Below are positions 2-541 of a DNA stretch of 541 nucleotides, piece by piece. The DNA is from a phage, in the sequence record EF517044.1. One strand, 5' to 3'. Below the pieces are notes generated by a model. It searched no databases. It worked only from the letters and a program-made list of their open reading frames with translations, and had not been told where the DNA came from. A program made the translations under genes and the position numbers. Within the stretch, counting starts at the first letter, position 1, and every line of letters starts with the position of its first letter.

Positions 2-292
2 ACTGTGGAGGCAGGACGAGATGAGATGGCTGTAGGCTCTCACGCTAAGGATTACAACCACAACTCTATCGGCGTCTGCCTTGTTGGTGGTATCGACGAT
101 AAAGGTAAGTTCGATGCTAACTTTACGCCAGTCCAAATGCAATCCCTTCGCTCACTGCTTGTCACACTGCTGGCTAAGTACGAAGGCGCTGTGCTTCGCG
201 CCCATCATGAGGTGGCGTCGAAGGCTTGCCCTTCGTTCGACCTTAAGCGTTGGTGGGAGAAGAACGAACTGGTCACTTCTGACCGTGGATGA
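2..292 (+). CDS. 3.5: T7-type lysozyme / N-acetylmuramoyl-L-alanine amidase, C-terminal ~96 codons; 5' end lies upstream of the window
   Basis: Open frame from window position 2 (codon ACT) to TGA at 290-292 translates to TVEAGRDEMAVGSHAKDYNHNSIGVCLVGGIDDKGKFDANFTPVQMQSLRSLLVTLLAKYEGAVLRAHHEVASKACPSFDLKRWWEKNELVTSDRG. From memory this is near-identical to the C-terminal part of T7 gp3.5, including the zinc-ligand/catalytic residues His122 (CAT 203-205), Lys128 (AAG 221-223) and Cys130 (TGC 227-229). The ORF track's start at position 5 is an internal GTG valine codon, not the true start. Not verified by database search. Confidence 0.9.
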   Translation, partial: TVEAGRDEMAVGSHAKDYNHNSIGVCLVGGIDDKGKFDANFTPVQMQSLRSLLVTLLAKYEGAVLRAHHEVASKACPSFDLKRWWEKNELVTSDRG

Positions 293-293
293 T

Positions 294-316
294 TAATTGA
301 ACTCACTAAAGGGAGA
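294..316 (+). promoter_or_regulatory. T7 RNA polymerase class II promoter (phi3.8-like), -17 to +6; predicted transcription start at G311
   Basis: TAATTGAACTCACTAAAGGGAGA at 294-316 aligns without gaps to the T7 promoter consensus TAATACGACTCACTATAGGGAGA, with 19 of 23 matches. Mismatches are at -13 (298), -12 (299), -11 (300) and -2 (309); the -10 to -3 core ACTCACT and the +1 to +6 GGGAGA are intact. Position immediately upstream of the gp3.8-like ORF fits T7 phi3.8. Confidence 0.85.
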
Positions 317-334
317 CCACAGCGATTTCCCTTT
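308..334 (+). other. 5' leader RNA stem-loop (GGGAGA...UUUCCC type) at the start of the phi3.8 transcript
   Basis: Inverted repeat seen directly: aaaggga (308-314) pairs with tcccttt (328-334). It extends by g315-t327 (G-U) and a316-t326, around a 9-nt loop ccacagcga (317-325). The part within the transcript (311-331) resembles the 5' GGGAGACC...GGUUUCCC hairpin found at the start of T7 late transcripts such as the phi10 leader. Confidence 0.5.
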
Positions 335-343
335 GTTCGCATT

Positions 344-349
344 GGAGGT
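344..349 (+). promoter_or_regulatory. Shine-Dalgarno sequence for the gp3.8-like gene
   Basis: GGAGGT at 344-349, with 7 nt between GGAGG and the ATG at 356-358. Confidence 0.75.
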
Positions 350-355
350 CAAATA

Positions 356-541
356 ATGCGCAAGTCTTATAAACAATTCTATAAGGCTCCGAGGAGGCAT
401 ATCCAAGTGTGGGAGGCAGCCAATGGGCCTATACCAAAAGGTTATTATATAGACCACATTGACGGTAATCCACTCAACGACGCCTTAGACAATCTCCGTC
501 TGACTCTCCCAAAAGAAAACTCATGGAACATGAAGACTCCA
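356..541 (+). CDS. 3.8: HNH endonuclease-like protein (T7 gp3.8 homolog), N-terminal 62 codons; 3' end lies beyond the window
   Basis: ATG at 356 preceded by a strong SD; frame is open to the window end (no stop, so not in the ORF track). Translation: MRKSYKQFYKAPRRHIQVWEAANGPIPKGYYIDHIDGNPLNDALDNLRLTLPKENSWNMKTP. It contains a DHIDGN...N...NLR...EN motif (codons 452-520) typical of HNH (HNH_3-type) nucleases and matches my recollection of T7 gp3.8. Confidence 0.85.
   Translation, partial: MRKSYKQFYKAPRRHIQVWEAANGPIPKGYYIDHIDGNPLNDALDNLRLTLPKENSWNMKTP

Follow-up and report, generated by a model that had tools for sequence, protein, structure and literature searches.

The window analysed here, a 541-nt stretch of phage sequence record EF517044.1, aligns with positions 10870-11410 of the T7 genome at 98.5% identity and belongs to a T7 variant. 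All features lie on the plus strand. The 3' part of gene 3.5 (2-292), encoding T7 lysozyme (N-acetylmuramoyl-L-alanine amidase), was assigned from its open reading frame, the alignment and the T7 annotation; its product fragment matches Pfam Amidase_2 (E = 1.6e-8), and its stop codon is TGA at 290-292 rather than the TAA of T7. The T7 RNA polymerase promoter phi3.8 follows at 294-316 (-17 to +6), with its start at G311, which corresponds to the annotated T7 position 11180. The Shine-Dalgarno (SD) sequence of gene 3.8, GGAGG, can be read off the sequence at 344-348, and the 5' part of gene 3.8 itself (356-541) encodes an HNH endonuclease, as indicated by the T7 annotation and a match to Pfam HNH_3 (E = 2.1e-15). 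Between genomes with and without gene 3.8, the presence/absence junction falls at window position 344/345.

Promoter and leader share a hairpin at 308-334, identified by folding, z-scores, stem_loop features annotated in T3 and phiYeO3-12, conservation and covariation. The preliminary description had proposed an inner helix of 307-316 with 326-335, and both the folding and a set of 40 related loci confirm that it is real, stable and conserved. Its ten pairs comprise seven contiguous Watson-Crick pairs (308-314/328-334), A316:U326 and two G.U pairs, U307.G335 being an optional extra pair at the base. In the window, 305-337 folds at -10.7 kcal/mol (z = -3.50), with none of 200 shuffles as stable, and the inner helix has a pairing probability of at least 0.85 across all read-through contexts tested. 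The T7 version of the same segment reaches -17.4 kcal/mol (z = -5.67) and forms an 11-bp stem from A308:U334 to C318:G324, whereas the window stem has nine contiguous base pairs, a C317/A325 mismatch and then C318:G324. The G325A substitution costs the stem its C317:G325 pair and about 6.7 kcal/mol of stability. An exact search of IMG/VR for the G325A hairpin returned no match.

To place the hairpin among related phages, a covariance model search was used together with a manual alignment whose register was fixed by the +1:C pair. MAFFT was rejected because it misregistered the 3' arms of the Klebsiella and T3 sequences, and the covariance model left gaps at the Klebsiella -2/-1 pairs and did not detect two loci, L031 and L032. 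In 40 loci the model placed the hairpin downstream of the lysozyme gene, with the window matching at 50.6 bits. Across these loci, 96.9% of cells were paired, compared with 37-66% in slid controls, and none of 500 shuffles equalled this value. Every lineage retains the +1 to +8 stem. Pairs -1 to -3 are possible only in read-through RNA, and both of their sides change between lineages; the -2 pair, for instance, goes from A:U to C:G in KP32-like Klebsiella phages, and L031 and L032 carry G:C, A:U and U.G as their pairs upstream of +1. Moreover, L017 and L026 share a coordinated insertion in both arms. Mismatches at -1/-2 in 04922B and fPS-59 are uncompensated. ARAGORN detected no tRNA in the Klebsiella loci, and an Rfam scan of the whole window gave zero matches at E up to 10, R3.8 having no curated family.

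This hairpin is R3.8, an already known RNase III processing site overlapping phi3.8. What had been put forward as a candidate RNase III site is thus T7 R3.8 itself, as the 98.5%-identical sequence and the annotated relatives indicate. R3.8 has reportedly been on the T7 map since 1983. Locus, promoter and flanking genes are the same in T7, and the R3.8/phi3.8 sequence is equal except for the one loop-adjacent base, 325. The T3 "RNase III recognition site R3.8" (TAAAGGGAGACTTAACGTTTCCCTTTG) and the phiYeO3-12 "putative RNase III site R3.8" correspond base for base to 307-335, and the Yersinia phage R "R3.8 RNase III single-stranded RNA cleavage site" spans exactly positions 295-343 of the window. 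Each of the three phages carries a homologue of the stem-loop, embedded in a promoter and identical in its lower pairs (UAAAGGGAGA / UUUCCCUUUG), although T3 and phiYeO3-12 lack gene 3.8, so that R3.8 precedes gene 4, and differ in the loop and top pairs. The annotated extent also differs, being the 27-nt hairpin only in T3 and a 49-nt span including a proximal lower stem in phage R.

The RNase III cut is expected after U334 (334/335), since the T7 R3.8 cut is reportedly at coordinate 11203 (T7 GenBank record; Dunn & Studier 1983), equivalent to U334/G335; this position lies within all annotated R3.8 spans and within the range of 320-345 predicted earlier. Eight of ten other T7 cut coordinates taken in the same way land exactly on a ...UAU/G junction, and their agreement with the canonical CCUUUAU/G junctions supports the equivalence of 11203 and U334. 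The R0.7 coordinate taken likewise (1972) lay off any site motif and was dropped. The cut lies at +23 relative to the phi3.8 start in both the window and T7. In E. coli RNase III substrates the distal box has to lie about 11 bp from the cut (PMC3867540), and the T7 helix measures exactly 11 bp from the scissile bond (308:334 to 318:324). G325A strikes the distal-box region, and the window variant may therefore be a poorer RNase III substrate. R3.8 is located downstream of where phi3.8 transcription begins, and read counts fall beyond it (PMC6938266).

Promoter/RNase III hairpin overlap is common in T7 according to Jack et al., and at R6.5/phi6.5, R13/phi13, R1.1/phi1.1A, R1.3/phi1.3 and R4.7/phi4.7 RNAs from the internal promoter likewise lack part of the hairpin. 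Most of these other promoter-embedded sites combine the canonical motif with an internal loop and a well-defined lower stem, which R3.8 does not. Specifically, the canonical ACUCAAGG...CCUUUAU/G motif and the asymmetric internal loop, present at other T7 sites, are absent from R3.8, which reads ACUCACUAAAGGG...CCCUUU/GUUC at the motif positions. The phi10 (gene 10) leader has a nearly identical 21-nt hairpin beginning at +1 without an annotated RNase III site; upstream of +1 it extends by A:U, a U/C mismatch and CUA:UAG, where R3.8 has AAA:UUU. Promoter-spanning hairpins of similar or greater length occur in the phi10 and phi17 leaders, and the phage R and T3 records carry no RNase III feature there. 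No RNase III site is known in the phi10 and phi17 leaders of T7. Stem length alone is therefore not what defines a site, and a rule by which stem extension upstream of +1 would do so was rejected on the same hairpins.

Compared with the consensus of 17 T7 promoters, phi3.8 deviates at four positions, -13, -12, -11 and -2. All four deviations make or better RNA pairs, the one at -2 creating a pair upstream of +1 and the other three falling within 295-302. This segment, AAUUGAAC (promoter -16 to -9), supplies the 5' strand of a candidate proximal lower stem, as indicated by the folding, the promoter deviations and the start of the phage R feature; the 3' strand, GUUCGCAUU with C340 bulged, lies at 335-343 and is supported by the folding and the phage R span. 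When 295-343 is folded, 298-302 pairs with 335-339, and the whole proximal stem contributes -0.9 to -1.9 kcal/mol. The GUUCGCAUU segment is conserved among T7-group genomes with or without gene 3.8, and in relatives without the gene the MFE structure is a continuous 24-bp extended hairpin. Lower stems vary between lineages, however, with none in L015, and tests of lower-stem flank duplexes against shuffles were non-significant in every lineage (P = 0.06-0.95).

The preliminary description had instead extended the hairpin by an outer helix of 292-300 with 349-357, whose 3' arm, UCAAAUAAU, lies beyond the gene-3.8 junction and could be extended by GAG345-347. Its complementarity stands, at eight of nine pairs with an A296.A353 mismatch, but its role as a functional lower stem is not supported, given the marginal energy, the loss of the helix in fPS-59 and the poor cut geometry. 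Since both stems use the 295-302 region as 5' arm, the proximal and distal stems compete and are mutually exclusive. The cut at canonical T7 sites lies directly next to the 3' strand of the lower stem, and both the cut position and the published annotation agree better with the proximal stem than with the outer helix.

On the model with a distal stem, this stem would occlude the SD and AUG in read-through RNA, with G311-started or cut RNA exposing both. The complementarity is real and, at the sequence level, rarer than chance would give: 0.13 9-mer complements with at most one mismatch would be expected in the window, against the single non-trivial one seen. Folded alone, 292-357 takes exactly the structure described earlier, extended by CUC302-304:GAG345-347, although at -14.5 kcal/mol (z = -1.74) it is matched by 11 of 200 shuffles; the T7 segment reaches -21.2 kcal/mol (z = -3.84). 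With the CUC:GAG extension, the distal stem (292-304/345-357) gains 4.9 kcal/mol over the upper stem alone, more than the proximal stem, and makes up about 60% of the 285-365 ensemble, and the promoter deviations at -13, -12 and -11 favour it too. The nine positions without the extension, however, contribute only about -0.4 kcal/mol, and the outer helix is missing from the MFE structure of 285-365 (z = -0.35). The distal-stem structure lies 1.1 kcal/mol above the MFE among near-isoenergetic alternatives; the CUC:GAG probability of about 0.6 holds only for the isolated 81-nt fragment, and that of the outer helix is at most 0.05 with flanks of 100 nt or more. Flank-duplex tests of the outer helix were non-significant (P = 0.06-0.27). 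The 3' arm DNA is present only in gene-3.8-bearing genomes, of which the close relatives have identical distal arms, too similar to reveal covariation, and the helix is not kept in fPS-59, a carrier of a gene 3.8 homologue with a divergent leader. Canonical cut geometry on the distal stem would moreover predict a cut near 344-349, not 334. The CUC:GAG pairing is generic, as the CTCAC of a T7-type promoter complements any GGAG.

As had been stated, phi3.8 transcripts lack part of the structure, because G311 falls within the 5' arm (292-316). However, the further claim of differential SD exposure is not supported by a comparison of read-through (200-460), phi3.8-initiated (311-460) and cleaved (335-460) RNAs, in all three of which the SD, itself outside the claimed helix, has a computed unpaired probability of about 0.73-0.76. 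The initiation region is dominated by a local hairpin, 338-344/354-360 (-6.0 kcal/mol, z = -1.26), whose loop holds the SD and whose stem takes up the AUG, so that the AUG is sequestered alike in the three RNAs. This hairpin competes with both candidate lower stems and is not conserved, as NC-A and 04922B show uncompensated changes at U342. Translation of gene 3.8 that depends on RNA origin is thus unsupported by the folding or by comparison with relatives. A precedent exists in the T4 gene e/I-TevI system (PMC3014915), which also involves a homing endonuclease gene and in which an internal promoter lies within a hairpin that sequesters the ribosome-binding site, so that only read-through RNA has the 5' strand. 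There, however, SD and AUG lie in a stable stem with a measured effect of about 100-fold for gene e, whereas folding predicts a mostly unpaired SD in all RNA species of the present locus, and the T4 control has no RNase III step. On balance, occlusion by the distal stem is improbable. Highly improbable is a more elaborate scheme, in which gene 3.8, as a mobile HNH gene, was inserted in T7 just after 344 in the distal R3.8 stem and supplied a new 3' arm (GAG...UCAAAUAAU) that restored pairing with the A/T-rich promoter positions -19 to -7 to form a three-way translation switch. In that scheme the proximal stem, the distal stem and the AUG hairpin would alternate, and translation of the HNH gene would differ among read-through, cut and phi3.8-initiated RNAs.

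Two further explanations, each possible but not favoured, concern the hairpin and its extension. One holds that the hairpin mainly protects phi3.8-initiated RNAs from 5'-end-dependent decay, RNase III cutting being secondary. Stabilisation of mRNA by 5' stem-loops is established, and the hairpin starts at +1, with the +1 to +8 stem kept in all lineages. It also differs from the phi10 leader by a single loop base (GGGAGACCACAGCGGTTTCCC against GGGAGACCACAACGGTTTCCC), and the R3.8-built model matches phi10 at 40 bits. Yet the covarying pairs -1 to -3 are absent from phi3.8 RNA, the -2 deviation creates one of them, and the annotations name an RNase III site. Protection of the 5' end is compatible with the R3.8 explanation as a second role. 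The other explanation, likewise tentative, regards everything beyond the core hairpin as functionless, a chance consequence of A/T-rich sequence in the promoter and ribosome-binding site. The non-significant duplex tests, the lineage-variable lower stems and the restriction of the T3 annotation to a 27-nt stem-loop are consistent with it; RNase III substrates, by contrast, usually span about two helical turns, and both the 24-bp extended hairpin of relatives without gene 3.8 and the location of the promoter deviations at paired positions argue against it.

Taken together, the T7 identity, the fold, its conservation and covariation, and the matching annotated R3.8 features shown here make it very probable that the feature is the R3.8 RNase III processing signal of a T7 variant, placed atop the class II promoter phi3.8. 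Points against the R3.8 reading are the motif without a match, the phi10 and phi17 counterparts, the mismatches in 04922B and fPS-59, the non-significant lower stems and G325A.

The cut, its position and the fate of its products we infer from established knowledge of RNase III and T7. The core is a 10-12 bp stem-loop, its 5' strand formed by promoter positions -3/-4 to +8 and its 3' strand by the leader sequence GGUUUCCCUUU(G). Read-through RNAs from upstream promoters contain the whole helix and may add a weak A/U-rich lower stem from promoter -16 to -9. A single cut by host RNase III would follow U334, which in T7 is 11 bp below the loop. Single RNase III cuts leave stabilising 3' hairpins (PMC3867540), and the upstream product, carrying genes up to 3.5, would end in such a protective hairpin; the downstream product would begin with pGUUCGC, 9 nt ahead of the gene 3.8 SD. 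RNAs started at G311 have only an 8-bp 5'-terminal hairpin (6 bp and one isolated pair in the window) and no lower stem. They would probably remain uncut and retain a 5'-end hairpin almost the same as the one in the phi10 leader. Origin-dependent processing, with the full helix in read-through RNA only, is therefore a plausible model.

Finding R3.8 in a near-identical variant is in itself a rediscovery that adds nothing new. A translational switch, if true, would mean that a T7 homing-endonuclease gene is regulated like T4 I-TevI, with that type of control joined to RNase III processing. The covariation upstream of +1 and the promoter deviations suggest that the sequence of phi3.8 has been shaped by the RNA structure that it encodes. 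In addition, the complete substrate is present only in read-through RNA, and quantitative T7 expression models in which every transcript crossing R3.8 can be cut may therefore mis-assign the fate of phi3.8 RNA.

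The window aligns without gaps to T7 10870-11410 at 98.5% identity, so that window position p corresponds to T7 position p + 10869, and no phage record was found closer to it than this. Gene 3.5 (lysozyme/amidase, Pfam Amidase_2) contributes its final 96 codons and ends in a stop codon at 290-292. It is followed by the T7 RNA polymerase promoter phi3.8, which initiates at G311 (T7 11180 in the T7 annotation), and by gene 3.8 (HNH_3), of which 62 codons are included from the ATG at 356 onwards, with a GGAGG Shine-Dalgarno (SD) sequence at 344-348. The eight substitutions relative to T7 (51, 115, 132, 218, 291, 325, 466 and 503) are all transitions, seven of them from G:C to A:T. 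Six are in coding sequence, four of which alter the protein (G>D, A>V and P>S in the lysozyme, A>T in gp3.8), and the gene 3.5 stop codon is TAA in T7 and TGA in the window. This pattern looks less like that of a natural relative than like that of a T7 line after chemical mutagenesis or mutation accumulation. G325A is the single difference from T7 within the hairpin studied here, and the variant hairpin had no exact match in IMG/VR.

The helix formed by 307-316 with 326-335, which the preliminary description had proposed as part of an RNase III site, is the already known site R3.8. Of its ten pairs (-9.8 kcal/mol in all), seven are contiguous and Watson-Crick, and the others are A316:U326 and two G.U pairs; the helix forms with a probability of 0.85 or more across all read-through contexts tested. 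None of 200 shuffles was as stable as the fold of 305-337 (z = -3.50); the T7 sequence, which forms two additional G:C pairs, reaches -17.4 kcal/mol (z = -5.67). In the T3 RefSeq record, positions 10616-10642 are labelled 'stem_loop, RNase III recognition site R3.8' and overlap 'T3 promoter phi3.8', and phiYeO3-12 carries the same pair of features; both stem-loops align base for base with window 307-335. In Yersinia phage R, a close T7 relative with gene 3.8, the feature 'R3.8, RNase III single-stranded RNA cleavage site' corresponds to window 295-343.

We take the T7 R3.8 cut to be at 11203, that is, between U334 and G335, inside the interval 320-345 where cleavage had been predicted. When ten other RNase III coordinates were compared with the T7 sequence, 8 of them sat exactly on the canonical junction (CCUUUAU/G or a near variant), making both 11203 and the convention that it denotes the last base of the upstream product credible. 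R3.8 itself is without the canonical motif of the other T7 sites. According to Jack et al. 2019 (PMC6938266), R3.8 is cut downstream of the point where phi3.8 transcripts begin, an arrangement of promoter and cleavage site that is common in T7, and read counts fall for at least 500 bp past R3.8. Hairpins spanning the promoter start are also seen in the T7 phi10 and phi17 leaders (22897-22930 and 34559-34596; 9+3 bp and 14 bp), for which the phage R and T3 records hold no RNase III feature.

G325A lowers the stability of the hairpin from -17.4 to -10.7 kcal/mol. The pair that it breaks, C317:G325, is retained or co-deleted in every relative examined and is the tenth counted from the cut, in the region of the RNase III distal box. 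Because the substitution removes a pair in this region at a cost of 6.7 kcal/mol, the window variant may be processed less well.

Among 49 lysozyme-anchored IMG/VR loci and annotated phage records, five lineages have a hairpin embedded in a promoter downstream of the lysozyme gene, either immediately or with one small ORF in between, namely the T7 group, the T3/phiYeO3-12 group, KP32-like Klebsiella phages, fPS-59 and the loci L031/L032. A covariance model built from seven sequences found the hairpin in 40 loci with 96.9% of cells paired, a level reached by none of 500 shuffles; controls with slid partners gave 37-66%. In a register anchored on the +1:C pair, the pairs -1 to -3 (308-310/332-334), upstream of the start, vary on both sides among lineages: pair -2 is A:U in T7/T3 and C:G in the Klebsiella group, and the three pairs are G:C, A:U and U.G in L031/L032. 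In two further loci, L017 and L026, the two arms contain coordinated insertions. Counter-examples to the upstream pairing are 04922B, with U.U at -2, and fPS-59, with U.U at -1 and -2. Since the pairs -1 to -3 are kept and are present only in read-through RNA, their retention argues for a role in read-through transcripts.

The preliminary description further proposed an outer helix, 292-300 with 349-357. Its complementarity holds (8 of the 9 positions pair, A296.A353 being the exception; 0.13 nine-base complements with at most one mismatch are expected by chance in the window), but its stability is marginal, the nine pairs contributing -0.4 kcal/mol on their own. Folding of 292-357 alone returns this structure plus CUC302-304:GAG345-347 (together, the distal lower stem) as the minimum free energy (MFE) form. 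In the fold of 285-365 the outer helix is absent from the MFE structure, which is no more stable than shuffles (z = -0.35), and its probability is at most 0.05 once the flanks are at least 100 nt. A second possible lower stem, proximal to the hairpin, pairs AAUUGAAC (295-302) with GUUCGCAUU (335-343, in which C340 is bulged), opposite a 5-nt bulge UCACU; 295-343 folded alone yields its core, 298-302/335-339. For T7 285-365, the upper stem (308-334) alone gives -16.4 kcal/mol, with U307.G335 -17.4, with the outer helix also added -17.7, with the proximal stem -18.3, with the outer helix and CUC:GAG -22.3, and with a separate 338-360 hairpin -24.0 kcal/mol, the MFE. In T7 289-362, the MFE, proximal and distal forms all lie within 1.1 kcal/mol, so thermodynamics does not choose between the lower stems.

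We favour the proximal stem on the basis of cut geometry, shared sequence and the phage R annotation. Canonical T7 sites are cut immediately 5' of the 3' strand of the lower stem, a position that G335 occupies in the proximal model, whereas the distal model would put the cut near 344-349. The proximal 3' arm is sequence common to T7-group genomes with and without gene 3.8, and the distal one lies past the junction of gene 3.8 presence and absence at 344/345. The phage R span ends at A295 and U343, the closing pair of the proximal stem, just as its spans of R0.3, R1, R1.1, R4.7, R6.5 and R13 end at or beside the closing pairs of complete two-stem hairpins. Several observations tell against a firm choice: the T3 annotation covers the 27-nt hairpin only, the relative L015 has no lower stem, and tests for a flank duplex reached significance in no lineage (P = 0.06-0.95).

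Gene 3.8 is variably present in relatives (L006, L007, L009, L011 and many of L012-L030), the shared sequence stopping right after GTTCGCATTG at 344/345, and in genomes without the gene the promoter and hairpin stand directly ahead of gene 4. In such relatives, for example CICC 80001, the MFE structure is one continuous 24-bp hairpin, comprising the proximal stem and a UAAUUAAU:GUUGAUUA helix that extends to the gene 4 SD. In some KP32-like Klebsiella phages (L039 1056-1121; also L036, L040, L047, L049, L053 and L057), the homologous promoter and hairpin are followed at once by a segment ending in GGGTTCGATTCCCGGACTGACCACACCA, which looks like a tRNA T-arm and acceptor end; ARAGORN made no call there, and the one Rfam hit, to the tRNA clan, was weak (17.2 bits, E = 0.73). 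In another Klebsiella phage (L035, about 1050-1075), the leader and first three codons (GAGATCAAATTATGCGCAAG) are close to the region where translation of T7 gene 3.8 starts (GAGGTCAAATAATGCGCAAG), but they lead into a different ORF; this likeness may reflect an initiation module common to both or a junction left by recombination.

The preliminary description is partly confirmed as an observation and partly supported in its interpretation; its claim about translation is not supported. The outer helix covers bases past the SD and the AU of the AUG but does not include the SD itself. Exposure of the SD in a promoter-dependent manner is not predicted by folding: its mean unpaired probability is 0.73 in read-through RNA (200-460; T7 0.74), in phi3.8-initiated RNA (311-460; T7 0.76) and in RNase III-cut RNA (335-460). 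In all three RNAs the AUG is held, with a probability of about 0.8, in a local hairpin (338-344/354-360) with the SD in its loop. At -6.0 kcal/mol (z = -1.26) this hairpin is weak, and it is not conserved: NC-A and 04922B differ at U342 with no compensatory change. CUC:GAG pairing reaches about 0.6 only in the isolated 81-nt fragment and is generic, because every T7-type promoter has CTCAC and every strong SD has GAG; moreover, fPS-59, which has a gene 3.8 homologue behind a divergent leader, does not retain the distal helix. The mechanism proposed is well established in T4, where it governs gene e and the homing endonuclease I-TevI (PMC3014915). Its defining trait, stable sequestration in read-through RNA only, is absent at gene 3.8 in the predicted folds, which do not support control of gene 3.8 translation by promoter origin.

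Read-through RNA contains the full upper stem (11 bp from cut to loop in T7), in agreement with the minimum of about 11 bp that the distal box imposes on E. coli RNase III substrates (PMC3867540), and may add a lower stem, though a weak one. Cut once, after U334, the upstream RNA would be left with a 3' hairpin, a known stabiliser when left by single-strand RNase III cleavage (PMC3867540), and the downstream product would start with a 5'-monophosphate on GUUCGC..., which agrees with the fall in coverage past R3.8. In RNA started at G311 the helix is reduced to 8 bp (in the window, to 6 bp and one isolated pair), and the scissile bond would lie 3 nt outside it, so this RNA is probably not an RNase III substrate. 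It would keep its 5' stem-loop uncut, a structure near-identical to the phi10 leader hairpin, from which it differs by one loop base. Compared with the consensus of 17 T7 promoters, phi3.8 deviates at -13, -12, -11 and -2 (window 298-300 and 309), and all four deviations create or improve a pair of the R3.8 structure; G at -12 occurs in phi3.8 alone among T7 promoters, and A at -10 in T3 phi3.8 alone among 14 T3 promoters. These sequence comparisons suggest that the phi3.8 promoter is constrained by the RNA it encodes.
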